Source: a virus (taxonomy: Duplodnaviria > Caudoviricetes). From it: 54,456 nt of DNA. The notes below the pieces were generated by a model. The model worked only from the letters and a program-made list of their open reading frames with translations. It did no database searches and was not told where the DNA came from. Below, piece by piece: positions 395-54,266 of the stretch (the stretch's first letter is position 1; the number at the start of each line of letters is the position of its first letter). The stretch is from IMG/VR virus record IMGVR_UViG_3300027898_000010, positions 1 through 54,456 of that record; one strand, 5' to 3'. The translations under genes and the position numbers were made by a program.

Positions 395-1489
395 TTAACC
401 TACCGCGCGCCGAAGGCGGGTGCGCTCAAGACGATCAAGAGCGAGCCCGAACGGGTCCAGCGTCTGCGCCTGCTCCACCGCGACGTGAACGTGCTGCGGC
501 TGCTGCGGGCGGGCGTGAACCACGCGGGTATGGGTTTCCGCGATCGGGCGCGGCATAGACCCCCGGGCCTCCTCGTCGATACGCTCCGGAGCGCCAGCTG
601 AGATCAGCCCGAGCAACATCAGGAACATCTGCATGATCACGGACGGCAACCCGGCCTCGATGAGATCGGCCTCCTCGTTCTCCAACCCCGTGTAGCGGTG
701 GATAGACCGCACGAAGGGAGACACCTTGCTGGTAACCGGAGGAGCCAGGGCAACCGCGGCGGCAGCAACGTTCAAATCACCCTCGGCCGCGGCCAGCCCC
801 GCCTCGGCCTCCTTGAGCGAGGCCTCGTCCTTGGCACGAGCGGTCAGCGCCGGGATCGCAGCCGAAGCCTCACCAAGCTCCTTGCAGAACTTCGACGTCT
901 TCGGACCCGTGGTGTTGGTGCAGCTATCGGTCATCGCGTAATAGCGATCGGCCTTTGCCGTTTTAACCAACTGCTCGGCAGCCGCCACGGTGGTCACGGG
1001 CCGGTCGCCAACCATGGGCACGGACGCCGCCAGCCCAGCGCGAAGAGCAGCCACGTTCTTCTGCCCGTCGGTCACTTTGGTTTGAGCCTTGTCATGCGTA
1101 GCGCGAGCGTCGGCATACGAGTTGGACTTGGCCGTCGTGGCAGCCGTCACCTGATCGAGATTGCTGGTTGCCGAATTGAAGGTGGCAAAGCTCGACAGCA
1201 CGAGCCCGAGAACACCAACGGTTCCAGCCAACGCGGACAGGCCGAAGTTGCCGTGCCGCCATTCGTGAACGGCCTTCTTGACAGCGCCGAACTCGACGCA
1301 GACCACGGCGATGGCGAAGAATGCCCAGGAGAGCCGGTATGGCAGCGTGGCTCCGCGAGCCCAACCGTTTGTAACGCCAAGCAAAAGCGCGACGGCGAAC
1401 GTGATGGCGAGGGCCACGATAAGCGACTTGTCAGCCAAACGCTGAATCGTCTCCGCCACCGATGGGCGGGTATTGGCATGGGGGTGCAT
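395..1489 (-). CDS. Membrane protein: three N-terminal TM segments, Ala-rich coiled-coil region with a Cys pair, C-terminal TM segment
   Basis: Hydrophobic runs (LIVALAITFAVALLLG; WAFFAIAVVCV; LAGTVGVLGLVLS; VIMQMFLMLLGLIS); GGAG upstream of ATG. Confidence 0.75.
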   Translation of the reverse strand: MHPHANTRPSVAETIQRLADKSLIVALAITFAVALLLGVTNGWARGATLPYRLSWAFFAIAVVCVEFGAVKKAVHEWRHGNFGLSALAGTVGVLGLVLSSFATFNSATSNLDQVTAATTAKSNSYADARATHDKAQTKVTDGQKNVAALRAGLAASVPMVGDRPVTTVAAAEQLVKTAKADRYYAMTDSCTNTTGPKTSKFCKELGEASAAIPALTARAKDEASLKEAEAGLAAAEGDLNVAAAAVALAPPVTSKVSPFVRSIHRYTGLENEEADLIEAGLPSVIMQMFLMLLGLISAGAPERIDEEARGSMPRPIAETHTRVVHARPQQPQHVHVAVEQAQTLDPFGLALDRLERTRLRRAVG

Positions 1490-2012: not shown

Positions 2013-2670
2013 ATGACGACGCAAAAAACGCAAACCTGCATCCAAAAAGCACTGGTCGCAGCGGCTCGATGAGAAGCGGCGCGAAAATGGCTGGGGATGG
2101 CGCGAATTAGCCCGTCGCGCGGGCGTTCCACACGAGGCGCTATACAAGTGGTCGCGCGGGGATATTGAGAATCCCGAGGCAGATCGACTGGAAAAAGTTG
2201 CCGCCATACTAGGCGTTTCCAGACTTTGGCTCCTTCACGGTATTGATGTTGTTCCAAATGAAGCGTACGACTTCCGCCTTCGTCGTATTCCACTTTTGCA
2301 AATTTCGGACGTGGGGAACATGCTGGACCAGGCGGGATGGAGCGGGCCGACAGTTGTAGCGCCTGACGAGGTTGGTCCCGCTGCATTTGCGCTGGTAGTA
2401 CCGGATCACGCCCTCCAACCGGACGGTATTTTACCCGGCGATATCATAGTGATAGATCCCGATATTGCGCCAATGCCCGGCAAGCCGGTGGCGGCCCTCG
2501 TAGGCAATCCCCAGCGAGCCGTGCTGCGGAAGCTCCGGCAGCTTGTCGCCGACAGCATGGACGGCGCGGAACTAACGGCCAGTCATCCTGACTACGCGAC
2601 GGAAACCATCAAGAAGAAGCGCGGCGACATGATCGTCGGGGCCGCTACCCATCACATTCGACGCCTGTAA
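2013..2670 (+). pseudogene. CI-like repressor (XRE HTH + S24/LexA-type C-terminal domain), frameshifted near the start
   Basis: Frame from 2029 reads RKPASKKHWSQRLDEKRRENGWGWRELARRAGVPHEALYKWSRGDIENP...ILGVSRLWLLHG then FALVVPDHALQPDGILPGDIIVIDP. It has an in-frame TGA at 2014-2016 and no start before the HTH. ATG 2013 is one base out of frame across AAAAAA (2023-2028). Confidence 0.75.
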
Positions 2671-14556: not shown

Positions 14557-15642
14557 CTATCTGCTCAAATCTAACCCGAGTTGATGCTTCAAAACCCGTC
14601 GCGCTTCCCGGCTATGCGCCAGGTGCCAAAGCCATGAGGCGAAGGCGAACCCGGCAATATAGAGGAACACGCGCTGCGACTGGCTGCTGCTGCTCGGAAG
14701 GCCCACGCGAGACATGAGGGATGTCGCTTTGTCAGCGGTAGCTAAAAGGCCGTCAATCGCACCGCCGTTGAAAAAGTGATCGATGGTGGCCAAAATGCTG
14801 CCGCCAGCCATAACCTGAGCCGCCGTCTTTTGTGCGCGGGCATCCCTGACGTCGGTGGAACCCAAATCGGCCAAGTCGTCTGACGTTGCATTGGCGCGCG
14901 ATTCCGGGAGGGGGAAGCGCTTTGCGTCGGGGGAGTGGAGGGTATCCCGGGTCGCCGGATCGATGACGCCGGTGACCGGAAGGTTATGCTGATCCTGGAA
15001 CGTCAGAACGGCAGATCGCGTGATTGCCCCATGATCGCCGTCCTCGGCCCCAGCGCGATAACCAAGCTCGTTCAGCCGTACCTGCGAGAGGCGGCAAGCG
15101 TGCTCCTTGGCTTCGATGCAGACCTGGGCCGTGCGGTTCTGCCAGCCGTGCAGGAATTCACGGTCCTTCGGGCGTCGCTCGGCAAGGGTGACACAGAAGC
15201 TAGAGCGCTGCTCGGCGATGTTGTCGACGACGGAGGGAATGTCGGCGCCATTCGCTGCGGCCACGTCGTCGTCGTTAAGGTGCCCCGTGTCAGGACGCCC
15301 GAGCGATCGCTGCAGGAATAGCGTGGCCTGCTTGATACCGAACAAGGTGGCGCTATCCACGGCGATCAGGTCGATTCCAGGCGGCAAGTCATCGCCGCGA
15401 ATCGGCGTCCACTTTCTCGCCATGTAGTATTTCGATAGCTCGTCGCGCGTGACGCGCCGGAGCTTTGCCACGATAGCTGGATCCCAATTGCGATCCTCGC
15501 ATTGAGGCAGACCGTGGAAGGCGCAATATTCGTTGTAAGTATAACCACTTAGGGTTGGTCCGCCGCTGTCGGCGGGGTTGTTGTCCCAACCGCCCTCCTT
15601 CTCCAGGATGGCGGCAAAGGCGATCGGCCAGGCGTCCCTCAT
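14557..15642 (-). CDS. Endolysin: GH108 domain, peptidoglycan-binding domains, hydrophobic C-terminus
   Basis: EGGWDNNPADSGGPT (GH108); FLHGWQNR; LNELGY...DGDHGAITRSAVLTFQDQHNLPVTGVID. Confidence 0.9.
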   Translation of the reverse strand: MRDAWPIAFAAILEKEGGWDNNPADSGGPTLSGYTYNEYCAFHGLPQCEDRNWDPAIVAKLRRVTRDELSKYYMARKWTPIRGDDLPPGIDLIAVDSATLFGIKQATLFLQRSLGRPDTGHLNDDDVAAANGADIPSVVDNIAEQRSSFCVTLAERRPKDREFLHGWQNRTAQVCIEAKEHACRLSQVRLNELGYRAGAEDGDHGAITRSAVLTFQDQHNLPVTGVIDPATRDTLHSPDAKRFPLPESRANATSDDLADLGSTDVRDARAQKTAAQVMAGGSILATIDHFFNGGAIDGLLATADKATSLMSRVGLPSSSSQSQRVFLYIAGFAFASWLWHLAHSREARRVLKHQLGLDLSR

Positions 15643-16649
15643 GATGCCCCCCCGCGCACATCGGCGGCGAACTCCGCCAAGACGGCATCCACGTTGGCCC
15701 CTGAGCCCAAGGCATCGAGGGCGCGGCTCTTGGCCCCGTCGATGGCGAGGATTTCGTGATGAGCCGCGGCGCGGCGCACCAGAATGTCGGCTCGATAGTC
15801 ATCGAGCGATAGTCCGGCAGCCGCGGCGCCGTCACGAAGCATGTTCAAAGACGCATCGCTGCCCCGGATTGAGCGCGTGGCGGCCTCGGCGCGAACCTCG
15901 TCGGCCTCCGACCAGAGAGCCTTCGTTGCCGCCGTGGCTGCCTCCAGGACCGCCTGCGCCGCATCGCGAGCGTCAAAGACCGGCCGCACGGGAGAAGTAC
16001 CCCCGGCACCCTGCGGAGCGGTCACTGCCGCAGGGGCCGGGAGCGGTTGGCCCAGCACGCCGGGGATAGCCGACGAGGTGTGGTCCAGGCCAATTCTGTT
16101 GATGGGGACGGGCTGAGCCGTGGAAGGATTTTCCACATTCGGGGCCTGCTGACTGGGGGCGCCGTAGATGGTGACGTGGTGCGAAGCGGTGGCGGGCGCA
16201 GCCGGAGGGCTCTGCACGACGACAACGGTTGGCTGCGCCGCAGTGGGCGCGGCGGCGGAGGGCTGGCTGGCAACGCGGGGGCGGGCCTTCCACCAGCGAT
16301 CATCACGGAAGTCCGCTGGAATCGGCGCCATGACGGACAGCGCCCGAGAGCACGCGCGCAAGGCATCGATCTCGTATCCCATCTGATCGGCCGCAGATCC
16401 TCCCTCGCGGAGTAGCGTCATCTGCCGGTGGGCCGGATAAAGCGCAAGTATGCGTCGGCGGCATTCGTCTTTGACCGCAGCCTCGGTTGGCGCGGCCGAA
16501 GTCTGCAAGAGCGATCCGTCGGCGCCAACGGCCATGCCAGCGACGACGGTGCCTGCTGGCGCTTGGCGCGTATCTGCGTCGGCAGGAACTCCGTGCCCCC
16601 CGCGCCAAACGTGGGAGACGGCGCCATTCAAGACAAGGAATTGGTCCAT
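15639..16649 (-). CDS. Tail-fibre-associated/assembly protein with Pro/Ala linker
   Basis: Follows the fibre gene; VKDECRRRIL...IPADFRDDRWW resembles fibre-assembly proteins. Confidence 0.6.
   Translation of the reverse strand: MDQFLVLNGAVSHVWRGGHGVPADADTRQAPAGTVVAGMAVGADGSLLQTSAAPTEAAVKDECRRRILALYPAHRQMTLLREGGSAADQMGYEIDALRACSRALSVMAPIPADFRDDRWWKARPRVASQPSAAAPTAAQPTVVVVQSPPAAPATASHHVTIYGAPSQQAPNVENPSTAQPVPINRIGLDHTSSAIPGVLGQPLPAPAAVTAPQGAGGTSPVRPVFDARDAAQAVLEAATAATKALWSEADEVRAEAATRSIRGSDASLNMLRDGAAAAGLSLDDYRADILVRRAAAHHEILAIDGAKSRALDALGSGANVDAVLAEFAADVRGGAS
16121..16135. promoter_or_regulatory. Intragenic operator copy TGGAA-GGATT-TTCCA
   Basis: Perfect match to the dispersed palindrome, extended by CATT like other copies. 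Confidence 0.6.
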
Positions 16650-18131: not shown

Positions 18132-18470
18132 TTACGACGGCAGACGAGGTGGGCGCGGATCGCGGAAGGCGTTAGGCTGCATTTCGTTGCGGTCACCGCC
18201 GGAGAGAATGCCAGACTGCTGCTCCATCTTCTTCTTGAGCAGGGCCTGCTGGTAGAACGGCGACGCGAGCGGCGTTAGTTCCGCCGGGATGGCCTGCGGA
18301 GGAGCCGGCATTGGTGGAGGTGGCATCATCGCTCCAGACTGCGGCCCCATCGGAGGGCCGCCGGGAGGAGGGCCAGACGGGTGCATCATGGGCGGACCAG
18401 GGGCCGGGCCACCAGGACCGCCGGGACCAGGCGGGCCACCAGCAAAGGCATTCATGCGGGGGTCCATCAT
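18132..18470 (-). CDS. Pro/Gly-rich low-complexity protein
   Basis: ATGA coupling to the upstream gene. Confidence 0.55.
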   Translation of the reverse strand: MMDPRMNAFAGGPPGPGGPGGPAPGPPMMHPSGPPPGGPPMGPQSGAMMPPPPMPAPPQAIPAELTPLASPFYQQALLKKKMEQQSGILSGGDRNEMQPNAFRDPRPPRLPS

Positions 18471-20602
18471 TGCGGGTAACCTTTCGGGTAGCGCGGGGCA
18501 CCGTTGAACTGGCCGCCGCCGGACCGCGGCTGGAAGGTGGAATGGTGGGCCGGTTGACTGGAATTATTTTCCACGCTATTATCCTCCCTGAAGGCGTTGG
18601 TGGCAGCGCCTGCTCCGACCATCATAGGAACAGCCAGCGTGCCCTTGCCAAACATACTCTGCCATTCGGCCTCGGTCCTAGGTGGGCGTCCGTTGGCAGC
18701 GACAAAGCTGTCTACGTTTTTGTTGGTTTGGGATGTTCGTCCGTTGATATTTTTGATTGAGCCACCAGCAGAGCCGACTGCGCGCTGAATTGTATCGTTG
18801 AAAGCTGTCGTTGGAATTCTTCCGCCAGCTTGTTGAATCTGATCAGCATACTTCATGCGGATCATTTCCCGGAGAGGATCGGATGGACCAGGGTAAGCTG
18901 CACCAAGTGAGGGACCGGGCGTCTGAGTTGACTGTTGATTTGATAAATCTCCTTGAGTCTGTGTCGCCTGACCTGCGCCGGGAGCTACTGGAGGAGTTCC
19001 TGGACCATTTGCTGGAGGTGATCCCGGACCTTGATGCGCCGCCGGAACCACCGAAGAACTACCGCGTTGACCCTGACCCGACGGCACCACGTTGGCCACA
19101 GCAGGTTTAGGATTATCTGAAGGCCCTGACGCCTGACCAATTCGCGTTTGAGATTGCGCGGCTGGAGACCCAGCTTGGCCCGGATGAAGACGAGGATCTG
19201 GAACCTTGCTTCGAGCGACAGCCGCTTCTGAGTGCGCATCCCATGCGGCGGCAGGCTTGACCATCCAATCGCGGAGCTTCGCGCCAGCAACACCCTCCAG
19301 GCCGCCGGTTCCGGCTGCTACTGCCAATCTCTGAAGTCCCGTTACCCCTAGAACGGCCTCCATGGCTCGGCTTTGAACGGAGTCTTTATCGCTGCCGAGG
19401 CTATCCGCGTAGGCTTTGGCTTGCGCCTTCTCGTTCCCGTCAGGAAGCAGGGCGGCGTATTTTTCGTAAGCCTTTTTATCAACGTTGTAGTTTGGCCCGA
19501 CAGCCATATTCACGCCCTCGGGGAACTGCTCTGCGAGGTACATCGCCCCCGTACCGGCAGCCGCTGGCATGACATACTTGTCGACGACCAAATTGGTTGG
19601 ACCCGATGCAGCCCGCGAAGCATACCCGAGCCCAATGGCAGCCGGAACACCAGCGACAAGCGGACCAGCGATCTCCCCGTAGGTTTTGCCAAAGTTCGTC
19701 TTCTTGAAATCGAAGTTGTTTTTAAGCTCGTCGTCGCGTGCAGTTTCCGCGACGCGGACTTGTCGCTCCCTGGCTGCCTTCGCCGCCTCTCGTTCATTGC
19801 CACCTTTCGCCGACTCACGGTCAACAACCGCCTTGGCAATGGCAGCGGCATCATCATGCCAGCCCTTGCGCTGCAACGTCGTGATGCTGCTGTCTGCCGG
19901 CTGATTGAACTGCTGCATGAGATAGCGATATTGCGTGTTCTCGGCAGGCGTTGCGCCAGGAAGATCGGGGATGCCGCTTGGCGCTTGGGGTGGTTGCTTT
20001 TTCGACGTATCCGCAGCGGCGGATGGAGCGATGCCACCGAGGTCTTTGACGCCTGCCGCAGCAAGGCCAGTAGCCCCAATCCCGAGCGCCGCCTTATATG
20101 CACCCAAGGAAGGAACCGTCATGGCGGTGTTGACGCCGGCAGCCGTTAGGTTGGGAATGGATGGATCTTGATAGGCGCGGTGAACCGACCCAACGACGTG
20201 TCCAAGATGGTCGTACTCGGCAGAGAGCACAGCAGACGCTGCGTTTTCTCCACGATTGGTCAGGCGCTGCTCAAGAGTGTCGTAATATCCTGCAGCTTTA
20301 AACGGATCGCGGCTCTCGCCGGGACCAGTACCGCGAAGCTCGGCCTGTCGCGGGCCGGGCGCCGGCAAGCGGTCGGGCGTCGCCTCCGACACGTCCGGAA
20401 AGCGCGGCTGGTTGCCGCCGTAGCGGTCCACCATCTCCTGTCCCGGAGATGCAGCGGGCGGCAAGCCACGCTCCGCACGCATCGCGTTGATGCGGTCGTA
20501 GTTGTCGGGAGGGTTCGACTGATCCTCCGCCATGTGCTGCGCGTGAAGCTGCGTGACGGCGTCGGCGAACCCGGGCCTGATCTGGGGAGACAAGTCAGCC
20601 AT
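18467..20602 (-). CDS. Probable internal virion/ejection protein
   Basis: 711 aa, Ala/Gly-rich, in the ejection-protein cluster. Confidence 0.65.
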   Translation of the reverse strand: MADLSPQIRPGFADAVTQLHAQHMAEDQSNPPDNYDRINAMRAERGLPPAASPGQEMVDRYGGNQPRFPDVSEATPDRLPAPGPRQAELRGTGPGESRDPFKAAGYYDTLEQRLTNRGENAASAVLSAEYDHLGHVVGSVHRAYQDPSIPNLTAAGVNTAMTVPSLGAYKAALGIGATGLAAAGVKDLGGIAPSAAADTSKKQPPQAPSGIPDLPGATPAENTQYRYLMQQFNQPADSSITTLQRKGWHDDAAAIAKAVVDRESAKGGNEREAAKAARERQVRVAETARDDELKNNFDFKKTNFGKTYGEIAGPLVAGVPAAIGLGYASRAASGPTNLVVDKYVMPAAAGTGAMYLAEQFPEGVNMAVGPNYNVDKKAYEKYAALLPDGNEKAQAKAYADSLGSDKDSVQSRAMEAVLGVTGLQRLAVAAGTGGLEGVAGAKLRDWMVKPAAAWDAHSEAAVARSKVPDPRLHPGQAGSPAAQSQTRIGQASGPSDNPKPAVANVVPSGQGQRGSSSVVPAAHQGPGSPPANGPGTPPVAPGAGQATQTQGDLSNQQSTQTPGPSLGAAYPGPSDPLREMIRMKYADQIQQAGGRIPTTAFNDTIQRAVGSAGGSIKNINGRTSQTNKNVDSFVAANGRPPRTEAEWQSMFGKGTLAVPMMVGAGAATNAFREDNSVENNSSQPAHHSTFQPRSGGGQFNGAPRYPKGYPQ
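18554..18582 (+). promoter_or_regulatory. Antisense promoter TTGACT-17-TATTAT with operator TGGAA-TTATT-TTCCA (18559-18573)
   Basis: Near-consensus sigma70 elements at 17-nt spacing; same TTGACTGGAA start as the early promoter at 2736. Confidence 0.65.
18883..19110 (+). CDS. Nested antisense gene, 75-aa acidic amphipathic helical protein
   Basis: GGAGAGGA at 18871-18878 before ATG; MDQGKLHQVRDRASELTVDLINLLESVSPDLRRELLEEFLDHLLEVIPDL...; downstream of the 18554 promoter. Confidence 0.5.
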   Translation: MDQGKLHQVRDRASELTVDLINLLESVSPDLRRELLEEFLDHLLEVIPDLDAPPEPPKNYRVDPDPTAPRWPQQV

Positions 20603-32731: not shown

Positions 32732-32746
32732 TGGAAAATATTTCCA
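32732..32746. promoter_or_regulatory. Operator copy TGGAA-AATAT-TTCCA upstream of the helicase module
   Basis: Perfect match. Confidence 0.7.
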
Positions 32747-32798
32747 CATTCGAGTAATGGTCGGGTCGCCACCAGGCACCTAACCAAGGGGATCGACC

Positions 32799-35180
32799 AT
32801 GACGCCAACGAAAGAGCAGAGCGAAGCGCTCGAAAAATTCGCCACCGGCAAGAGCCTGCGCATCGGAGCCTTTGCGGGTTCGGGCAAGACCAGCACGATG
32901 AAGCTGCTATCCCGATCGACCTCGCGTGCCGGGGTGATGATGTGCTTCAACAAGAGCATCGCGGAGGACGCGGCCAAGAGCTTCCCTCGCAACGTTTCGT
33001 GCCAGACGACGCACGGGATGGCTTTCCGCTCCATGCGGGACGCCTACTCCACCGAGAAGCTGACGGGATCGCTGAACGGCGGATTCGTCGCCGCCAAGCT
33101 CCGCATCAACTCGCAGGACTACGGGGCTGGCATGGTGGTTCGTGGCCGCCAGCACGCCTTTCTGATCGTAGAAACCCTAAAGCGCTGGATGCGCTCCGAC
33201 CGCCCCCAGGTGATGTGGTTCGACGTTCCGCTCGACGGCAAGCTTTCCACGTTGACCGATGATCTGGCCAAGCAGGTGGCCTTCCGCATCGCCAAGGACG
33301 CCCGCGACGTTTGGGAGAAGATGATCGACCCCAGGCACGAATTGCCGCTTGGGCACGACGGATACCTGAAGGCATGGGCGATGAAGCGGCCGGAGATCCC
33401 GTGCGACTTCCTGGTGCTCGACGAGGCTCAGGATACGAATCCAGTCGTGCTCGGGATTTTAAAAAATCAGCAGGCCCAGACTGCGTGTGTCGGCGATGCG
33501 CACCAATGCCAACCGGCGGGCACGATGGTGGCCGTTGTCACGAAGAAATCGACCAGTGGAGCCAAGGCCAAGGGCGCGACTTCTGCACGTGCGGAATGGG
33601 AGAGCGTGCCGATCGAGCGGATCAAGAGAGGCGATCGCGTCGTCTCGTACAACATCAGCGGGCGGCATCTGCGGGCCGACGGCGACCTCGTCACCAGGGT
33701 GGCTAGCCGTCAATTTTCAGGCAACCTCGTCCGCGTTTTTGTTGGAGGAAAGGTCATCGACTTCACGCCAAACCACCGATGCGTCGTCAAGATCAATGGC
33801 GGCCTAAAAGGCAAGCACGTCGTCTATTTGATGCGAAAAGGAGGTTCGTTCCGGATCGGTAAATCACAGGCTGGCTACACATCCCAGCATGGGCAACTCG
33901 GATTCATGGCCCGAGCATCTAACGAGGGCGCTGAGAAAGTGTGGGTTCTCAGTATTCACGACAGTGATCGGGAGGCGCGCATCGCAGAGGCGGTCACGGC
34001 TGCAAAATTCGGACTTCCAGTTATCATGTTCAAAGACAGCATGGCAAAGTCCAGATCCGCCAATCGCAACGGCGATCAGGCATACATAGACGCCGTATTT
34101 TCCGCGTTGGGCGATCTCACGCACAATGCCATCGCTGCTCTAAATGCCCATGGCCGGCATCTCGAATACCCAATCTGGAGGAAGGGCGCGGCAAACCTGA
34201 AAAATCGCCGAGTCACCGAAATCCACGCCTGCAATCTTATGGATGGAATGAACTTCATCAGTGGCTCAGAGCGTGGGCACGGGCGCCCGGATATGGCTCC
34301 CATCAAAGTCGAGCGCATCCCGTTTAGCGGCATCGTCTACTCGATCGAGGTTGCCAACGTCAAAACCTACATCGCAAACGGCTTCGTGACGCACAACTCC
34401 ATCTATCAATGGCGCGGGGCGATGAACGCGATGAAGGAACTCCCATGCGAGCAAGAAGCGCGGCTCTCGATGTCGTTCCGCTTCGGGCAAGCCATCGCCG
34501 ACGAAGCGACCGACGTGCTGCGGCTGCTGGGCGAAACGCTGCCCTTGCGCGGCAACCCGAACATGGCAAGCATGGTCGGGCCGGTGGAGCTTCCCGACGC
34601 GGAGTTGTTCCGCACGAATGGCCGCTTGATCGAGGCCCTGATCGACTACATCCAAACCGGCTTGCGGCCGATGGTAGTGGGCGGAGTGAATGATATCCTC
34701 GCCATGGTCGACGGCAGCGAGAAGCTGATGCGCGGCCAGCCGGTAGAGTACCCGCTCGAACTGTTCGGGTTCTCCCACTGGGGTGAGGTTCAGGAGGCCA
34801 GCGAGCGCGAAGACGGCCAGGAACTGCGCCGCTGGGTCCGGCTGATCGACCAGCATGGCGTCGATGGGCTGCGTAAGGCCCTGACGGGGCTCCCGACAAG
34901 CGAAGCCAACGCCAACGTGATCATGAGCACCGGGCACAAATCCAAGGGCCGCGAGTGGGGCAAGGTCCGGCTCGAAGACGATTTCCTGCGCAACGTGACC
35001 ATCGACGGAGAGGCATCGCGAGCAAACTTCGCCGCCGGAAAATTCGATGAAGAACTACGGCTGTTCTATGTCGCGATGACGCGAGCCGAAATGCAAGTCG
35101 AGATCCCGGAAAGCTTAACCGAGAAGGTCGCCGGGCTGAGCGGGATCATGAGGGAGCCAGGATTTAGGAGGGCAGCATAA
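32799..35180 (+). CDS. UvrD/Rep-like SF1 helicase containing an intein
   Basis: AFAGSGKT, DEAQD, VGDAHQ|SIYQWRGA split by the intein, STGHKSKGREW, LFYVAMTRA. Confidence 0.9.
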   Translation: MTPTKEQSEALEKFATGKSLRIGAFAGSGKTSTMKLLSRSTSRAGVMMCFNKSIAEDAAKSFPRNVSCQTTHGMAFRSMRDAYSTEKLTGSLNGGFVAAKLRINSQDYGAGMVVRGRQHAFLIVETLKRWMRSDRPQVMWFDVPLDGKLSTLTDDLAKQVAFRIAKDARDVWEKMIDPRHELPLGHDGYLKAWAMKRPEIPCDFLVLDEAQDTNPVVLGILKNQQAQTACVGDAHQCQPAGTMVAVVTKKSTSGAKAKGATSARAEWESVPIERIKRGDRVVSYNISGRHLRADGDLVTRVASRQFSGNLVRVFVGGKVIDFTPNHRCVVKINGGLKGKHVVYLMRKGGSFRIGKSQAGYTSQHGQLGFMARASNEGAEKVWVLSIHDSDREARIAEAVTAAKFGLPVIMFKDSMAKSRSANRNGDQAYIDAVFSALGDLTHNAIAALNAHGRHLEYPIWRKGAANLKNRRVTEIHACNLMDGMNFISGSERGHGRPDMAPIKVERIPFSGIVYSIEVANVKTYIANGFVTHNSIYQWRGAMNAMKELPCEQEARLSMSFRFGQAIADEATDVLRLLGETLPLRGNPNMASMVGPVELPDAELFRTNGRLIEALIDYIQTGLRPMVVGGVNDILAMVDGSEKLMRGQPVEYPLELFGFSHWGEVQEASEREDGQELRRWVRLIDQHGVDGLRKALTGLPTSEANANVIMSTGHKSKGREWGKVRLEDDFLRNVTIDGEASRANFAAGKFDEELRLFYVAMTRAEMQVEIPESLTEKVAGLSGIMREPGFRRAA
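33507..34397 (+). mobile_element. Intein (297 aa) in helicase motif III
   Basis: Starts CQPAGT, block B FTPNH, ends VYSIEV...YIANGFVTHN|S; removal restores GDAHQSIY. Confidence 0.9.
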
Positions 35181-35530
35181 TGTGCACGGTTGAGCAGAAG
35201 AAGATCAAGAGGATCAGAGAGTTTTGGTATCGGCAGCAGGGGGCGTGCTGCTTCTGGTGTCAGCAGCCGGTTCCGCCCGATGAGGCGACGGCCGACCACA
35301 TCATCGAACGGTCGAAGGGCGGGCGCACCACGATCGAGAACATCCGCATGGCCTGCGCCCATTGCAACTGGCACCGCTCGAACGGGCCGCGCTACGATGC
35401 CCACGTCAAGGCCCGACAGAGGCACCTGGAGGGACTGCGTCCGAATTCCCTGCCCAAGACCATGATCAAAGAAGGCCTTCGCGAGATTGAGCGGCGCAAC
35501 CGAGAGCAGCCGATCGGTGCCAGCCCATGA
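35180..35530 (+). CDS. HNH endonuclease
   Basis: CFWC...TADHIIERSKGG...NIRMACAHCN. Confidence 0.85.
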   Translation: MCTVEQKKIKRIREFWYRQQGACCFWCQQPVPPDEATADHIIERSKGGRTTIENIRMACAHCNWHRSNGPRYDAHVKARQRHLEGLRPNSLPKTMIKEGLREIERRNREQPIGASP

Positions 35531-35787
35531 GGATGCCGAACCTTGTGACCAGGCGTCTCGCGCCGGACCCAGCGCCGCCGGAGGCAGCCAACGGGATCGA
35601 GTTTGAGTCGATGGACGATCTAGCCGACCGCATCGACACGCAGAAGGCTGCCATCGCAAAGACGGTGGCCAAGCTGCAGCAAGAGAACGAGAACCTAGAC
35701 GATCTGATCCGGCAAATGACCACGATCATCGAGGCGCGGCAGGTGTTGAACCGCACAAATCAACCGTACGTTTTCGAGGAAGACTGA
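35527..35787 (+). CDS. Coiled-coil hypothetical protein
   Basis: ATGA coupling; heptad pattern. Confidence 0.65.
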   Translation: MRMPNLVTRRLAPDPAPPEAANGIEFESMDDLADRIDTQKAAIAKTVAKLQQENENLDDLIRQMTTIIEARQVLNRTNQPYVFEED

Positions 35788-35788
35788 C

Positions 35789-35980
35789 ATGCCGACAGAT
35801 GGCTTCACTTGGCTGCGGTTTGTGCCGCACACGCGGGTAGCCGATTACGAGAGCGTCGGCTGGGAGTTGAGCGACGACCTTTCGACGTGCCACCACGGCC
35901 AGCACGCGGTGATCATGAGGTGGGCTGGAGAGGGCTACCCGCGAGCGCCGGTCAACGCGTGGTCCGATCCGCAAGGGTAG
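35789..35980 (+). CDS. Small hypothetical protein
   Basis: GAGG RBS; tight spacing. Confidence 0.6.
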   Translation: MPTDGFTWLRFVPHTRVADYESVGWELSDDLSTCHHGQHAVIMRWAGEGYPRAPVNAWSDPQG

Positions 35981-36032
35981 CCTGCGCCCGGCCGCCGTAC
36001 TACAATGACGACCCCAGCAACGGAGCACCGAC

Positions 36033-36347
36033 ATGAGTATGTCCGACATCCGAACCTATACGCGCCTTGTCGTGCACAAAGCGCGGCTGGACGCCGACGA
36101 CGTGATGCTGGCGGCGATCGATAGAGCCGTCGTGGAAATCATGTTCATGGTCCGCCAGGATGCGGCAACATACCTGAGCGGTGCCGGAGAGTGCTCCGCT
36201 GCCGCTACGCTCCTGGCCATGACGGATCGCCAGCACGAAGGCTTTCAGGCGTTGACGCGAGACGACCTTATGGACGCTCTTCGTCGCCGGGGGGAGGAGA
36301 GCCGTCCGGCAAAGTCCTTGACGCCATCAGATCCCGCTCACCCTTAA
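36033..36347 (+). CDS. Hypothetical protein
   Basis: GGAG RBS. Confidence 0.65.
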   Translation: MSMSDIRTYTRLVVHKARLDADDVMLAAIDRAVVEIMFMVRQDAATYLSGAGECSAAATLLAMTDRQHEGFQALTRDDLMDALRRRGEESRPAKSLTPSDPAHP

Positions 36348-39122: not shown

Positions 39123-39194
39123 TGGAATATTTATCCACATTTGCTGGTGGCGGGCGTTTCTCCAGTTGCAATGTGGAAGGATTTTCCCCATCAT
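39123..39194 (+). promoter_or_regulatory. Two near-match operators (39123-39137, 39174-39188) and a candidate promoter TTGCAA-17-CATCAT
   Basis: TGGAA-TATTT-ATCCA and TGGAA-GGATT-TTCCC upstream of the second inserted module. Confidence 0.6.
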
Positions 39195-39235
39195 GGGTGG
39201 GCATCAGGCTACCAAGCCAGACAACGGAGACGAGC

Positions 39236-39472
39236 ATGGCCACGCTAGCGCGCATAGACGACACCCTGATCGCCCGCATCCTGGACATGATCCTCCACGA
39301 TCAGCGCGACGAGATCAACGAGGCTCTGGCCGATCAAGCTGGCGACGAGACAGCACCGCAGATCCAGGGCATCCGCACATTCGAGGAAGTCGGGGTTCTG
39401 ACCACCGACGAAGGCCTCGTGATCCGGCTGAACAACGGCCAGTGCGTCTACCTCACCATTCAGGTCCAATAG
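39236..39472 (+). CDS. Small acidic protein
   Basis: GGAG RBS; IRTFEEVGVLTTDEGLVIRLNNG. Confidence 0.7.
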   Translation: MATLARIDDTLIARILDMILHDQRDEINEALADQAGDETAPQIQGIRTFEEVGVLTTDEGLVIRLNNGQCVYLTIQVQ

Positions 39473-39481
39473 GAGCACCCC

Positions 39482-39658
39482 ATGACGCCCCTCCAGCAGC
39501 GCCGCCTGCACGGCATCATCGAGAGCATCTATGCTGACGCCGCATCGAGCCTGCAGAAGCCCCGCGACTTCTCCGCGACGATACTCGATGCGCTGCACAG
39601 CGCGGGGTTCGGTGTTCAGGTCATCGACATCACGGTGCCAAGCGGAGAGCGGCGATGA
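39482..39658 (+). CDS. Hypothetical protein, 58 aa (not in the ORF track)
   Basis: AGGAG RBS; MTPLQQRRLHGIIESIYADAASSL... Confidence 0.6.
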   Translation: MTPLQQRRLHGIIESIYADAASSLQKPRDFSATILDALHSAGFGVQVIDITVPSGERR

Positions 39659-39772
39659 TGAGGCGAATTTTGGCGTGGTTGCGTGAGAGACGGCGGCCGA
39701 CAGGGCACAACACATGTGAGTGCACGTCATGCCGGGAGGATTATGACTATGACAGATGGAGCAGGGACTAAC

Positions 39773-40003
39773 ATGAGAGTTCGGATAGCGAGCAAGCTCA
39801 AGTGGCTCAACGGCCAGCGCGGCGAATACCTTCACGATGACCCAGATGGCGGAGTGAGTTGGGCCGTCGTCCGGCTCACGAGCGGCGATGTGATCACTGT
39901 ACACAAGCGGCAGATCAGCGAAGTCGATGGCCTGCCGTCGCCAGCGTCAGTGCGCCCGGTGGTGGTTCAGTACAGGCCCAGCCGCGGGAGGGTGAGGGCA
40001 TGA
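39773..40003 (+). CDS. Small beta-rich (SH3/KOW-like) protein
   Basis: MRVRIASKLKWLNGQRG...AVVRLTSGDVITV. Confidence 0.5.
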   Translation: MRVRIASKLKWLNGQRGEYLHDDPDGGVSWAVVRLTSGDVITVHKRQISEVDGLPSPASVRPVVVQYRPSRGRVRA

Positions 40004-40015
40004 AGGCTCCGCGGC

Positions 40016-40420
40016 ATGCAAACATTGCGAGACGAAGCGATGAGTAGGGGAGCAGAAATCGCGGCCCGCTGGATCGTCATGAGCAACAAAGCTGTCGAGG
40101 GCGCTGCCCGTGCCGCGTTGGCCGCGGAAATCGACGTTGCGATAGCTCTGGCCACAGCCCCATTTCGCATCGAATTCCCGCCGGGGCCGGAGCGGAGGCC
40201 AGATCCACACCGCATGGGGCGACGGGAGGCTTCTCAATACTTGCGCGAACGGCATTGCATAAATCTCGGCGTGCAGACGCTGGCAAAGTTAGAGTGCTTG
40301 GGGAAGGGGCCTGCAATGACGAAATCCGGCAAAGCTTGCATCTATACGCCAGCCGACCTCGACACCTGGGTGAGAGCACGCACCGTGAGGGGGAAAGCCC
40401 ATGGCCCAACGCAACTCTGA
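40016..40420 (+). CDS. Excisionase/AlpA-like HTH protein
   Basis: RREASQYL...VQTLAKL...GKGP...IYTPADLDTW. Confidence 0.7.
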   Translation: MQTLRDEAMSRGAEIAARWIVMSNKAVEGAARAALAAEIDVAIALATAPFRIEFPPGPERRPDPHRMGRREASQYLRERHCINLGVQTLAKLECLGKGPAMTKSGKACIYTPADLDTWVRARTVRGKAHGPTQL

Positions 40421-40991
40421 CTACGCCCGGAAACCTCTAGATTTGTATTCCACGCCGACCTGGGTGACGCTCGCCCTCATTCCGCACATGCCGGACATCG
40501 AATCGGTGTGGGAGCCAGCCTGCGGTAACGGCGCCATCATCAGAGCGCTCAAGGATCACGGCATCACCTCGGTCGTCGGCACCGATATCGCGATGGGGCC
40601 GGAGTTCGACTTCATGCGGCAGGGACCGCTCAATTCTCCGCTCACCTCGCCGAGCCGAGTCGACATCATAACCAACCCGCCGTACTGCATGGCGCAAGCC
40701 TTCGTCGAGCGTGCCCTCACACTCCAATTCGGGGGCGGTGGCCGGGTTGCCATGCTGCTGAGCAACGACTTCGACCACGCCAAGACGCGCCGGCACCTGT
40801 TCGCAGACTGCCCGATCTTTGCTAAGAAGGTCACGCTCACCCGTCGAATCGTGTGGTTCGATCCAGCGGAGGAAAACGCCAGGCGCAAGGTTGCCGGGCT
40901 CAAGCCGTTGGGCGGACCCAGTGCCATCCATGCCTGGTATCTATGGGACCACCTGCACGACGGAGAGCCGACAATCGGCTGGGGAGAATGA
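40401..40991 (+). CDS. Small DNA N6-adenine methyltransferase
   Basis: DLYSTPTW, WEPACGNGAI, IITNPPY. Confidence 0.85.
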   Translation: MAQRNSDYARKPLDLYSTPTWVTLALIPHMPDIESVWEPACGNGAIIRALKDHGITSVVGTDIAMGPEFDFMRQGPLNSPLTSPSRVDIITNPPYCMAQAFVERALTLQFGGGGRVAMLLSNDFDHAKTRRHLFADCPIFAKKVTLTRRIVWFDPAEENARRKVAGLKPLGGPSAIHAWYLWDHLHDGEPTIGWGE

Positions 40992-40994
40992 CCG

Positions 40995-41156
40995 ATGCGT
41001 GAGTTCTGGCTGAACCTGATCTTCCCGGGGCTGTCGAAGGCACGGTCCGAACGCGAAAGCGCCGCGGCAGGGTTTGATGCCTACCAGCGGCGAAAGGAAG
41101 GACGGCTCCAGCGCCTCCTCAAGTCCCTACGCGATGGGACCATCAGCGAGGGCTAG
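40995..41156 (+). CDS. Hypothetical protein, 53 aa (not in the ORF track)
   Basis: GGGGAG upstream; MREFWLNLIFPGLSKAR... Confidence 0.45.
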   Translation: MREFWLNLIFPGLSKARSERESAAAGFDAYQRRKEGRLQRLLKSLRDGTISEG

Positions 41157-41189: not shown

Positions 41190-41435
41190 CTAGTTAGTGT
41201 CGGGGTCGACAAGCTCGCGCCGCTGGTTGCCGACGACGACAACGGCACCGCGCCGGGTGAGACGCGCCAGGCAGCCGTAAGCGCTAGCCTCGTTCTTCCA
41301 GCCCATGTGCAGCGCAATGGCCTTGTTAGACGGGAACCCGCGACCGGCGTCGATCTCGGCGCGAACGAAGTCGAGTACGCGCTGCTGCTGGGGCGGGAGC
41401 AGACCCGATGGACGGCGCAGAAGGGGCAAGCTCAC
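41190..41435 (-). CDS. LexA N-terminal-like winged-helix protein
   Basis: QQRVLDFV...GFPSNKAIALHMGW...LARLTRRG. Confidence 0.75.
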   Translation of the reverse strand: MSLPLLRRPSGLLPPQQQRVLDFVRAEIDAGRGFPSNKAIALHMGWKNEASAYGCLARLTRRGAVVVVGNQRRELVDPDTN

Positions 41436-43264
41436 GGTGCGCTCTCCATCATTTCGATCCGGCGCCCGATCCAGCGCATGACGTTGACAGCCATCGAGTT
41501 ACCGAGCGCTTTGTAGCGTGGGCCATCGGCGGCGGGCTTGCCGCGGTAGGGAACCGCAGAATATCCTCGCGGGAAGCCCTGCAAAAACTCGCACTCTTCG
41601 ACCGTCAATCTTCTGACCTGCCAACTGGTGAGTGTTGATTTACCTTCACTGCTTGCGGGTCGCCGTACTTTTTGAACCGCTGATAGTGCTTGTCGCAGTA
41701 GCCTAACCCCTTCTGCGGCTTCCCACAGATCGTGCATGAGCCTTTCGGCTTGTGCTCCTCGTTGTGACAACTCCGACAAATACGCTCCAAGTTCTCGGGC
41801 GAGTTGTTGAGATGGTTGCCATTCTTGTGGTGGACATCTCTCGCCAAAGGATTCCCGCAGCGATTGCACGGCCCCTGCGGAACGATCTTCCTCGCGTGAT
41901 AATGCGCAGTAGACCACCCAACGTCTGGAGAATGCCGCTGGTCGAAGTTCGCTGCCATGCAGCGCTGATCGCAGAATTTCCGGCGATTGAAGTGTATCAA
42001 GTATTCCAAGTCCCCATTGGGCAAACGCTTCCTCTCCAAGCGCGCTGCGCACTCCACGCAATAGCGCTCCGGAGTCGGTTTGCGATGGGCAGGCATGGCA
42101 TTCTCCCGAAAACTCTAACAACGTAATAGCAGCCGGATCGCTGCCCGTATTCAGGCAATCCGTGACGTCGCCGGTCTCGTAGCAGCCGTCATTCCCCGTA
42201 GTGCGGTAGGCCAGCGTCGGCGCGCGGCCGTGGGCTGGGATCGGATGACACGGATCTCCCTGCGCCGGGTTGCTGCGATTGGCGGCGCTGGTGATCTGGG
42301 TCTCGTCGAAGACAACCGGCAACAGTCGGCCCGCAAACGCATCTTGTGTCGTGCCGCCCTTGTTTCCTGCCGTGTCGAGTGTGCCAGCCACGGCCACGAA
42401 CGTCTCGCTCTCGAAGTCAAAACGCCCCGAGCCGCCGTGCGCGGTCTGCGCGTTCGCTACGTCGATCGGACCGGCTTGGTTGTTACCGCCGAATGCGAGC
42501 AAGCTGTCGCACGTATCAGCGTCGGTGCCATATGGTCTATCACCGCCTGTAGAGTTTCCGCCCGCCCGCAGGCACGGCGCAACATCGCTCGCGATCAATC
42601 CTCCGTCGCAGTCGAAGTCGGTTCCAAGTCCGCCACCGCCCTTAGTGCGCGCGCTAAGAGTGGGGGCAGGGTTTTGCCCCGCTTGGCGGCGCGGCGGAGA
42701 ATTCCCGAGCAGGCTCTCGCGCTCAAATAGTACCGCTGCGGCACGTCGCCAGTCTCCAGCACATCCGACAACGAACACACGCCGTCGTCGTTGAGGGACA
42801 GCCCGGCCAAACCCGTCCACTCGGACAAACTGAGCGTCCAGCACTCGGTAGGCGAGACCATACCCGCATTCTGCCAGCCCTCCGAGGATGGAGGCGAAAG
42901 CCCCTCCCCGGTCCATGCTGAGCACACCGGGGACGTTCTCCCAGATGACCCAGCGGGGGCGCAGGCGGCGAGCCAGGAGGCAAAATTCGAGCGCCAGGTT
43001 ACCACGCTCGTCATCCAATCCGCCTCTGAGACCGGCGATGCTGAACGACTGGCACGGGGTGCCTCCGACGAGAACATCGATAGCTGCATAGTCGTTGGCC
43101 CCAATCGTTGTAAAATCGCCGTGCAGCGGTACGTGCGGATAGTGGTGCTTCAGGACCGCGCGCGGAAACGCCTCGATCTCGCTGAAAAACGCCGGACGCC
43201 AACCGAGCGGATGCCAGGCGACGGACGCAGCCTCGATGCCGGAGCAGACGGAGCCGTAGATCAA
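41432..43264 (-). CDS. DNA cytosine-5 methyltransferase
   Basis: SVCSGI, GGTPCQ, WENVPG, QRRRRVF, RRLTVEECEFLQGFP, YKALGNS. Confidence 0.9.
   Translation of the reverse strand: MIYGSVCSGIEAASVAWHPLGWRPAFFSEIEAFPRAVLKHHYPHVPLHGDFTTIGANDYAAIDVLVGGTPCQSFSIAGLRGGLDDERGNLALEFCLLARRLRPRWVIWENVPGVLSMDRGGAFASILGGLAECGYGLAYRVLDAQFVRVDGFGRAVPQRRRRVFVVGCAGDWRRAAAVLFERESLLGNSPPRRQAGQNPAPTLSARTKGGGGLGTDFDCDGGLIASDVAPCLRAGGNSTGGDRPYGTDADTCDSLLAFGGNNQAGPIDVANAQTAHGGSGRFDFESETFVAVAGTLDTAGNKGGTTQDAFAGRLLPVVFDETQITSAANRSNPAQGDPCHPIPAHGRAPTLAYRTTGNDGCYETGDVTDCLNTGSDPAAITLLEFSGECHACPSQTDSGALLRGVRSALGEEAFAQWGLGILDTLQSPEILRSALHGSELRPAAFSRRWVVYCALSREEDRSAGAVQSLRESFGERCPPQEWQPSQQLARELGAYLSELSQRGAQAERLMHDLWEAAEGVRLLRQALSAVQKVRRPASSEGKSTLTSWQVRRLTVEECEFLQGFPRGYSAVPYRGKPAADGPRYKALGNSMAVNVMRWIGRRIEMMESAP
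41605..42096 (-). CDS. HNH endonuclease nested out of frame within the C5 MTase
   Basis: GGGAG RBS; CVEC, FCDQRC, CNRC...DVHHKNGNHLNNSPENLERICRSCHNEEH, CTIC...YCDKHY. Confidence 0.85.
   Translation of the reverse strand: MPAHRKPTPERYCVECAARLERKRLPNGDLEYLIHFNRRKFCDQRCMAANFDQRHSPDVGWSTAHYHARKIVPQGPCNRCGNPLARDVHHKNGNHLNNSPENLERICRSCHNEEHKPKGSCTICGKPQKGLGYCDKHYQRFKKYGDPQAVKVNQHSPVGRSED
42595..43089 (-). CDS. Alternate-frame ORF resembling the M.EcoHK31I beta polypeptide
   Basis: WQNAGM...CWT...CSLSDVLET...YYLSARACSGILRRAAKRGKTLP, nested in the MTase 5' half; resemblance judged from memory. Confidence 0.6.
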   Translation of the reverse strand: MQLSMFSSEAPRASRSASPVSEADWMTSVVTWRSNFASWLAACAPAGSSGRTSPVCSAWTGEGLSPPSSEGWQNAGMVSPTECWTLSLSEWTGLAGLSLNDDGVCSLSDVLETGDVPQRYYLSARACSGILRRAAKRGKTLPPLLARALRAVADLEPTSTATED

Positions 43265-43693: not shown

Positions 43694-43712
43694 TGTGGAA
43701 ATTTATTCCACA
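43694..43712. promoter_or_regulatory. Operator copy TGTGGAA-ATTTA-TTCCACA
   Basis: Perfect 7-bp inverted repeat upstream of the MTase operon. Confidence 0.7.
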
Positions 43713-46197: not shown

Positions 46198-46538
46198 GAT
46201 ACGATCTCCGGGGCTGGGCCTGCGAGGCGCTTGATGCGAGCAAGGTTGCGCTTGGCCTGCTTTACGAGGTCGAGCGCGACGTTGAAGCGGTGCTCGGCCT
46301 GCTGCAGGGCCTTTCTGCTGGTCGCAACCCGCTTGTTGATCCGAACTCTGCCGTCGGGCAGATCTTCCATGAGCGGGATACTCCGCACATCGGCGTAGGC
46401 AGCCTTGGCGCTTTCGAGAAGCACCTGGGACTGAGCGCGGTACGCTTCGGCCGTCTTCACGTCGGCAGCAGCGTCGGCCAGCGGGTTAGGCTCAGACGGC
46501 GTGTGTGAGGCTGTGGTGGGCGTGTGGAGCGTGTTCAT
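46194..46538 (-). CDS. Helical hypothetical protein
   Basis: ATGA coupling with the MTase stop. Confidence 0.6.
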   Translation of the reverse strand: MNTLHTPTTASHTPSEPNPLADAAADVKTAEAYRAQSQVLLESAKAAYADVRSIPLMEDLPDGRVRINKRVATSRKALQQAEHRFNVALDLVKQAKRNLARIKRLAGPAPEIVS

Positions 46539-50883: not shown

Positions 50884-51702
50884 CTAGAACAGCTGCACCC
50901 ACGACGTGCCGTTCCACTTGGAAACCTGCCCGTTCGTGGTGTTGTTCCATTCCTGCCCACGAAACGGCGCGGCCGGAGGAGTAGGCGACGCCACCTGAAG
51001 ATCTGAAATGCTCACCAGCGTCGATAGGTCGAGCACGACGCTTGGGCCGCCACCGCTCTCGGTGAATGTCACCTGGTTATTCGCCGCGTTGATGGTTGCG
51101 CCGCTCACATGAATGTCGGGCGCGAGCATCGCTTGGCTGAGGAACAGCTTCTGATCCGAGCCGCGCGTGATGAGGTTGCCGGTCTGCAGCGACGGACCGG
51201 CCGCAGCGATGATCGCATTCACGTCGATCTGGCCGCCTGAAACGTCAATCCAGTAGGCGACGCCAGGCGCAACCGAGGTCGCGATGTACCAGCGATCACC
51301 AACCGGGTCCCACCAGAAGTCGCCGATCTTCGCCTGACCCGGACCGGTACCAATCGTCGGCGCCGTGGTGCCGGTTGTTGAATCGAAGATGCTCTGGCGA
51401 AGTTGGGCCGCAAACCACTGCTTGAACAGCGTCGGCGTCAGCGGAACCCAGACTTGATTGATGGCATCGTAGGTGAAGAACGACCCAGGCACACCGGTGG
51501 GCGGGTTGCCCTGGTTCCACCAAAGCTGGGTGGTGTCGGTCGGCGGCGTCGGCGTAAAGCTGATGTTGTAGATCCCGAGGCGCCCGAGCACGCTCGCAAC
51601 CACGTCCTGGCTCCACGTCGTCACCGCAGTATTCGGCGACGCGCCCGGTAGCGGCGTCATCTGCAGCATTTGCTGCGTGATATCGACGGTCGCGTACAGC
51701 AT
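50884..51702 (-). CDS. Fibre protein with repeated P-x-GxxW modules
   Basis: ATG at 51702 overlaps the upstream stop; PPTDTTQLWW, IGDFWWD, FRGQEWNN. Confidence 0.65.
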   Translation of the reverse strand: MLYATVDITQQMLQMTPLPGASPNTAVTTWSQDVVASVLGRLGIYNISFTPTPPTDTTQLWWNQGNPPTGVPGSFFTYDAINQVWVPLTPTLFKQWFAAQLRQSIFDSTTGTTAPTIGTGPGQAKIGDFWWDPVGDRWYIATSVAPGVAYWIDVSGGQIDVNAIIAAAGPSLQTGNLITRGSDQKLFLSQAMLAPDIHVSGATINAANNQVTFTESGGGPSVVLDLSTLVSISDLQVASPTPPAAPFRGQEWNNTTNGQVSKWNGTSWVQLF

Positions 51703-52175
51703 CAGTTCGGTATCCCCCGGCTGAATTGACCCGGCGCCAGATCGTGCTCGGAACCGACGCGGTTGAATTGACGGACCTCGAAGCGCTGCGTCAGCGTGTC
51801 TCCGGACGAAAAGCGGACGAACACCACGGCATTGTGGTGATGCCGCCGGCCAACGCCCATGCCGTCCCCTGCGCAGAGGCCAGTTACATTCGACAGGATC
51901 AGGCGCACGCTGGTCGCATCGTACTGGCACTCGGCCATGCACCCAGCGCCCTTGGCGGTGACCTCAAGGATGCCCTCGCCCGGCTCGAGCCGGTGGGTGA
52001 GGTCCAGGCGCACGGTGAAGATGTCGCCGGGAGCCATGATGATCAGCGGCTCACCCCAAGCGTTGCGCGGAATGGTGCGGAACAGCGGCTCGCCCGACGC
52101 GCCATACACCAGCGTGCGGACCGGACGTTTGGAGCCAGTCTGAGCCAAAATATATGGAATTGGGGCGGTGGCCAT
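51702..52175 (-). CDS. Probable virion fibre adaptor protein
   Basis: First gene of the module; RLDLTHRLEPGEGI-type beta-rich sequence. Confidence 0.55.
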   Translation of the reverse strand: MATAPIPYILAQTGSKRPVRTLVYGASGEPLFRTIPRNAWGEPLIIMAPGDIFTVRLDLTHRLEPGEGILEVTAKGAGCMAECQYDATSVRLILSNVTGLCAGDGMGVGRRHHHNAVVFVRFSSGDTLTQRFEVRQFNRVGSEHDLAPGQFSRGIPN

Positions 52176-54229: not shown

Positions 54230-54266
54230 TGGAACGGATTTCCACTCGAAGTGGAGCAGTTTTCCA
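54230..54266. promoter_or_regulatory. Tandem operators TGGAA-CGGAT-TTCCA and TGGAG-CAGTT-TTCCA upstream of the replication genes
   Basis: Read directly; 22-bp spacing. Confidence 0.65.

Follow-up and report, generated by a model that had tools for sequence, protein, structure and literature searches.

A Probable Antisense Gene Nested in the Linker of a Putative Ejection Protein Gene of a P22-like Phage

The Locus and Its Genome

The window analysed here is an entire virus record of 54,456 bp, 73% complete by the source's own estimate, and its contig occurs in freshwater metagenomes. It is the contig of a P22-like podophage. The minus strand carries the P22-like portal, major capsid, head-closure, terminase, and lysis genes, while the early recombination genes form an operon on the plus strand. 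No tyrosine integrase is found in this 73%-complete contig. Because one relative of the gene described below falls in a Hyphomicrobiales genome bin, an alphaproteobacterial host for the phage may reasonably be inferred.

The subject of this account is a long minus-strand gene, called here the host gene, and a much smaller ORF lying inside it on the opposite strand (Table 1). The host gene follows the portal, coat, and head-closure genes and precedes the tail and lysis genes, a slot that we take to be the one where P22-like phages keep their ejection proteins. The earlier note had called it an ejection protein gene, and this is probably what it is, gene order being the sole basis of the name: the protein belongs to no named family, no known ejection protein matches it significantly in sequence or fold, and fold searches with it return generic helical matches only.

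Direct searches for close relatives of the host protein found none, and a search of 1.84 billion representative proteins yielded 97 relatives. Domain A is common to them, and domain B is often present too; 40 proteins, the window's included, have both in a single ORF. In these 40 proteins the linker between the two domains has a median length of 59.5 residues versus about twice as many in the window, and an AlphaFold model built with 42 sequences predicts disorder over residues 465-575 or so. The tree of host proteins (30 rows, with 2 short rows and 9 near-duplicates excluded) is largely unresolved and places the window on a long branch. Judged from sequence, the host frame is a real gene across the overlap. 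Two promoter-like sites matching at 9/12 positions occur on its sense strand, one at 19112-19139, at the TAG that ends the nested ORF, and the other at 18578-18606, back to back with the antisense promoter.

Table 1. Coordinates of the features discussed, with the evidence or remarks that apply to each
Feature	Position	Strand	Evidence or remark
cI-type repressor gene (HTH_3 + S24)	2014..2670	+	operators at 1902, 2713, 2753 flank the gene
Host gene, 711 aa, putative ejection (internal virion) protein	18467..20602	-	97 relatives, domain conservation, AlphaFold model
Domain A, linker, domain B of host protein	residues 136-445, 446-574, 575-668	-	domain conservation
Pro/Gly linker of host protein, 129 residues, predicted disordered	18881..19267	-	domain conservation, AlphaFold model
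Sigma-70-type promoter TTGACT-17-TATTAT	18554..18582	+	in variable C-terminal host tail, host codons about 674-683
Operator dyad TGGAA-N5-TTCCA, in promoter spacer	18559..18573	.	one of 11 genome-wide sites
Inferred leader, about 295 nt, antisense to conserved host domain B	18589..18882	+	start site placed from the -10 box
Ribosome-binding site GGAGAGGA	18871..18878	+	precedes ATG 18883
Nested antisense ORF, 75 aa, ending at TAG 19108-19110	18883..19110	+	GC3 dip, hydrophobic moment, L053 comparison
In-frame continuation past TAG, 49 codons to TGA 19258-19260, no start codon	19111..19260	+	GC pattern, host GC3

The Nested ORF and Its Product

The ribosome-binding site and the 75-aa ORF that the earlier note had described are both present. 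The ORF lies entirely within the opposite-strand gene and has start signals; its ATG is one codon from the start of domain B, and with the host protein kept the probability of an ATG with an SD sequence at this position is 0.033. An open frame of 75 codons is in itself no more than chance would give (P 0.37 under synonymous recoding).

The product is acidic, with a net charge of -8, and is predicted to form a helical hairpin (residues 3-24 and 29-46) followed by a Pro-rich tail; a single-sequence model reaches a pLDDT of 85-91 over residues 11-50. The same ORF has also been called as a gene on a 692-bp public contig, and another public contig, X1, possibly the window's source, matches the entire region of the finding, TAG included. 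Among the contigs that match the window no variation is seen in the overlap. Direct searches for close relatives of the ORF found none, the lone match (L001) looking spurious, and the ESM Atlas gave no usable match. Pfam and PHROGs hold nothing credible for 12 antisense proteins (from the window and its relatives, see below) or for the read-through form, and fold searches with the antisense proteins return generic helical matches only.

The Wobble-Base Anomaly

A dip in the GC3 of the host gene had been predicted, and the one that is found is the deepest in the genome. Over host codons 498-574 GC3 is 0.35 versus 0.75 expected from the amino acids (z -8.0), and the lowest value among 1040 overlapping 77-codon stretches (z -9.0) falls in this gene. 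Pro/Gly content was considered as the source of the dip and rejected, other Pro/Gly-rich stretches of the genome having GC3 z no lower than -2.8. Host codon position 3 corresponds to antisense codon position 2, and a host wobble base supplies even the A of the TAG. As a coding frame the antisense ORF shows the native pattern of GC1/2/3, namely 0.74/0.34/0.68.

When the host protein is kept and its wobble bases are permuted, the hydrophobic moment of the antisense product stands at z +3.5 and its codon likelihood at z +1.6 only; in the control for this permutation one segment reached z +2.4 for the moment and +2.8 for the codons. The dip does not stop at the linker: it continues through codons 575-625 of domain B (z -5.8), a stretch in which the antisense frame has stops, and several relatives have lower GC3 in domain B too.

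GC3 dips do flag double coding in this genome, because the next-deepest one, in a C5 methyltransferase ORF, coincides with a nested HNH gene. That ORF (41432-43264, minus strand, 610 codons) contains two same-strand out-of-frame ORFs, 41605-42096 and 42595-43104; one of the nested pair encodes an HNH endonuclease (E 2.7e-12), the other is a methyltransferase-associated ORF (E 4.3e-6), and the main frame is open across both. Another dip, at the start of the minus-strand ORF 50884-51942, probably reflects a mis-called start, and ORF 51702-52175 overlaps this ORF in a different frame.

A Promoter, an Operator Family, and a Repressor

The promoter facing the late operon, with a perfect dyad in its spacer, lies just where the earlier note had placed it. 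It matches the consensus at 10/12 positions, the sole site to do so among 12 promoter-like sites in the genome, and the probability of such a match at 18554 is 0.0013 under recoding and 0.014 under codon shuffling. Its first 11 bases are the same as those of the early promoter at 2736.

The genome-wide repetition of the dyad was absent from the earlier note. There are 8 exact copies versus 0.04 expected (200 shuffles, maximum 2), and the genome has none at the other spacings from 0 to 15. A weight matrix built from the 8 exact dyads finds 11 sites of at least 20.5 bits, the next best reaching 13.8. Because of this excess, and because three sites flank the cI-type repressor gene, the dyad is very probably a phage operator, and the repressor is its probable binder. 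The arrangement around this HTH + S24 gene is lambdoid: the operator at 1902 lies ahead of a cro-like ORF, which has no family match, and those at 2713 and 2753 lie at an early promoter, which they overlap. Elsewhere, the operator at 32732 heads a plus-strand helicase cassette, the pair at 39123/39174 another plus-strand cassette, the one at 43696 a methyltransferase cassette, and the pair at 54230/54252 a replication gene. The dyad sites would together form a putative CI regulon. The one complete relative has no dispersed dyad, and the 12 loci found by scanning viral contigs for the operator pattern each had a single dyad and were not linked to the window by tblastx.

The window copy of the repressor gene has a frameshift close to its beginning: the frame opened by the ATG at 2014 does not carry through an A run, and there is no in-frame start. 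As an intact 218-aa cluster-mate, P0110, exists on another contig, this frameshift is, on that comparison, an assembly slip or a variant. The ATG lies just 3' of a -10-like box, which suggests a leaderless message.

The operator-headed plus-strand cassettes 32732-36347 (helicase and HNH) and 39123-41156 (small ORFs and a methyltransferase) are both inserted among minus-strand head genes. The helicase gene (32799-35180) has what appears by eye to be an intein-like insertion, and the 93-nt tRNA-Ala that ARAGORN calls within it (34697-34789, plus strand) is probably spurious. A ParB-methyltransferase gene (46535-48778) has a weak intein match, PF14890, below the cut-off. Lastly, a perfect operator at 16121-16135, a possible roadblock site, lies within the coding sequence of a late gene (15639-16649) and is accompanied by no promoter, GC3 dip, or antisense ORF.

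Antisense ORFs and Selection in Relatives

Does the same slot hold a gene in other phages? Five scans gave 51 relative loci with DNA, of which 33 are distinct after removal of duplicates; L035/L036 and L047/L065 are near-copies and are counted separately among the 33. A census of nested ORFs with an ATG, an SD, and a minimum length of 35 aa, made without reference to any motif, covered 34 loci, the 33 relatives and the window. ORFs in the window's frame after domain A occur at 16 of the 34 loci, window included (15/33 relatives; 5620 codons), and before the end of domain A there is 1 (12851 codons); the other two antisense frames after domain A hold 1 and 0. In those 15 relatives an ORF thus occupies the antisense frame whose conservation in homologues the earlier note had named among its tests. 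Four further loci, with another start or a weaker SD, were added to the census by hand, and in 14 of the 33 relatives no such ORF is found. The lowest 40-codon GC3 after domain A drops by 0.07-0.43 in the 20 loci with an ORF and changes by +0.09 to -0.19 in the 14 without one.

The main antisense family has an N-terminal motif, D-W/F-x-x-hydrophobic-R-x-x-A-x-D. It occurs in the products of 10/24 loci, a count that is circular, those loci being where the motif came from; among held-out loci it occurs in 2/10, both times in the window's antisense frame. Relatives represented by protein only could encode the motif antisense in 32 of 89 cases versus 12.2 expected from shuffles, and the closest host relative, P0003, shows no signal (86/200 shuffles as high).

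The argument depends on the held-out loci and on comparisons made without the motif, two of which concern codon positions. L019, L027, and L039 were compared through a frame-blind DNA alignment in which 3/66 pairs exceeded the threshold; in the overlap they are identical at host positions 1/2/3 to the extent of 0.59/0.56/0.72, and the values for domain A are 0.74/0.74/0.36. In L047, L048, and L049, with the DNA aligned by host protein, identity is 0.73/0.58/0.59 in the overlap, 0.81/0.87/0.43 in domain A, and 0.69/0.82/0.38 in domain B. Conserved host wobble bases together with a relaxed host position 2 are what selection on the antisense frame should produce; by this measure such selection is present in two groups of three relatives, and the argument for selection on the window's own ORF is indirect.

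How close is the window's product to these proteins? An 11-member profile of the main antisense family does not detect it (E 66), and it fits only a loosened version of the motif. Its comparison with the 59-aa antisense protein of L053, a locus picked by eye among the 33, gives z 5.5 (0/1000 shuffles) and a phmmer E of 0.34; the two antisense proteins have 11/47 identities versus 5 for the host, which over the same DNA stands at z -0.8. Comparisons with L015, L020, and L054 are not significant. Promoter-like sites are clear for L022, L032, L039, and L049 and weak or absent for others. An exact-sequence look-up of the relatives' antisense products found 8/8 absent from a collection of 15 billion proteins, and near-identical versions of two family members have been called as genes on short contigs.

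The relatives offer other observations as well. L028 has the same antisense gene as L029/L031, with one in-frame indel, and the host C-terminal tails differ directly after it, which suggests tail exchange beside the antisense start. Small opposite-strand ORFs, free-standing or partly overlapping, lie just downstream of the host stop in L035, L036, L040, and L042; some are hydrophobic, and they are a possible source of nested genes.

The Linker and the Longer Frame

Another question is whether the overlap is what made the linker rich in Pro, Gly, and Gln, as had been suggested. This did not hold up: relatives have Pro/Gly linkers too (median about 60 aa), so that the low complexity is, on this comparison, ancestral, and the overlap fills exactly the unconstrained part.

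Beyond the TAG the antisense frame does remain open, as had been noticed, for the 49 codons listed in Table 1. This extension has a coding-like GC1/2/3 of 0.76/0.40/0.64 and a host GC3 of z -5.5, and its amphipathicity is z -0.3. The frame ends three codons from domain A, and in 7/11 relatives the antisense ORF ends near that domain (0-12 codons). The extension is probably a coding remnant of a longer ancestral ORF that was shortened, which is more likely than readthrough. A 125-aa protein made by readthrough, in contrast, is not supported: in this genome TAG serves as an ordinary stop, no tRNA call is a suppressor, and the searches turned up no homologue of 125 aa. Recoding of TAG was rejected, this codon terminating 6/42 genes examined, and the sole tRNA call in the 73%-complete contig is the tRNA-Ala.

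What the Nested Gene May Do

The best explanation, to which we give a probability of about 0.68, is a real protein-coding gene nested antisense in the disordered linker, controlled by the repressor and expressed early. That the 75-aa gene is real is very probable on the sequence evidence, and its CI-controlled early expression is likely. The earlier idea of an overprinted, operator-controlled early gene is in this way retained, with the operator family, the GC3 dip, and the selected same-frame ORFs of relatives behind it, and is shorn of its readthrough form.

The CI repressor of the phage would bind between the -35 and -10 boxes of the 18554 promoter, so that the antisense gene would be silent in lysogens and switched on early once infection or induction occurs. 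It would fire against a late operon that is still silent and would behave like the other operator-headed cassettes inside the late region. The product would be a small, soluble, acidic two-helix hairpin, probably acting through protein binding.

Binding to host or defence proteins is common among small, acidic early proteins of phages. This, and the helicase and methyltransferase genes in the other operator-headed cassettes, are the reasons for placing an anti-host or counter-defence role first; if the gene is real, an early lytic effector of this kind is a tentative proposal and the most likely of the roles considered, followed by exclusion and then by interference at the RNA level.

In P22 the SieA gene adjoins gene 16. 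SieA, an inner-membrane, prophage-expressed blocker of the P22 conduit, proposed to act on gp16/gp20 (PMC10883804), inspires the second reading, unlikely in our estimate, in which the nested gene is real and encodes a SieA-like exclusion factor against the ejection apparatus of related phages, locked to its target gene. Here too the phage is P22-like and a small gene is tied to the ejection module; the slot recurs within a single gene family, the opposite-strand overlapping genes of phage Fc02 are described as exclusion genes (PMC9936078), and the antisense product of L026 has a membrane-like segment (hydropathy 2.55). However, SieA as described is a separate, lysogen-expressed protein of the inner membrane, whereas the window's product is nested and predicted to be soluble and acidic; with a maximum 17-residue hydropathy of 0.66 and its net charge of -8 it has no membrane segment, unlike an inner-membrane protein of the SieA type, and the operator in the promoter spacer predicts silence in the lysogen. 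A bolder proposal, which deserves still less credence, is that the linker is a dual-coding slot in which unrelated same-frame antisense genes, wired to their own repressor, are kept or exchanged as inhibitors of the cognate ejection machinery. If this were true, target and inhibitor would lie on the two strands of one DNA stretch.

It is less probable again that the output is the antisense transcript itself, or transcriptional interference, the convergent early promoter dampening premature late transcription with the peptide secondary or vestigial. A strong promoter toward the late operon, a 295-nt leader that the GC3 dip covers as well, a premature-looking TAG, and a weak terminator-like hairpin at 18695-18712 are what one would expect of such an arrangement, but selection in relatives tracks antisense codon positions, the amphipathic pattern argues for a protein, and terminators occur in the genome at chance level, 4 versus 3.5. 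The leader, moreover, has no unusual structure (fold z -0.26) and no credible Rfam match.

Finally, the dyad could be a stoperator-like roadblock on the late strand and the window ORF a shadow or decayed relic even with live genes in relatives, as the bare dyad at 16121, the known stoperators (PMC9283540), and the position of the window protein outside the main antisense family might suggest, but this is very improbable when the genome's best promoter coincides with the dyad, RBS and ATG sit at a domain boundary, the GC3 dip is the deepest of all, and L053 gives a match.

Relation to Known Systems

Whether prokaryotes have long antisense genes that are fully nested is disputed, and comparative evidence for such genes is rare. 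Embedded antisense overlapping genes have been described in P. aeruginosa (PMC8850804) and E. coli O157 (PMC9927249), and the likeness is plain: the ORF lies wholly within an opposite-strand gene, with its own promoter and signs of selection. In contrast to those bacterial genes as described, the slot discussed here, known from sequence alone, is found repeatedly in one family of phage virion genes, within a disordered linker; the proteins encoded in it are of at least two unnamed types, and it bears a phage operator.

Phage Fc02, with olg1 and gene 10, is also temperate and has small opposite-strand overlapping genes, for which exclusion activity was shown (PMC9936078). Those genes sit in the immunity region, and olg1 is expressed in the lysogen, whereas the window gene is embedded in a late structural gene, and its repression in lysogens is predicted.

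With respect to control, the parallels are the lambdoid CI/operator switch and the stoperators of cluster A mycobacteriophages, where repressor sites are dispersed and some lie inside genes, as here (PMC9283540). The stoperator, however, is described as an asymmetric site for a monomeric repressor, while in the window the dyad is symmetric, the repressor of HTH + S24 type, and most sites head cassettes.

In viral overprinting (PMC3494269, PMC8903798) a new frame likewise arises over an older gene. Antisense overlaps account for 6.6% of annotated viral overlaps, and overlaps in dsDNA viruses are mostly short in the account of PMC8903798; the overlap in the window, in contrast, is 228 nt and fully nested. 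The literature searched, chiefly of open-access papers, contains no report of an antisense slot in an ejection gene.

Outlook

About half of the relatives examined have this hidden slot, codon positions bear signatures of selection, and the operator in the window genome leads to a sharp prediction, namely a gene that is silent in lysogens and active once induction has occurred. Since a backward gene in this slot and frame is retained by many related uncultured phages, annotation probably overlooks a number of real phage genes; their products would be unnamed small phage proteins that gene callers pass over. The locus also provides a test case for how disordered linkers may turn into sites of gene birth.
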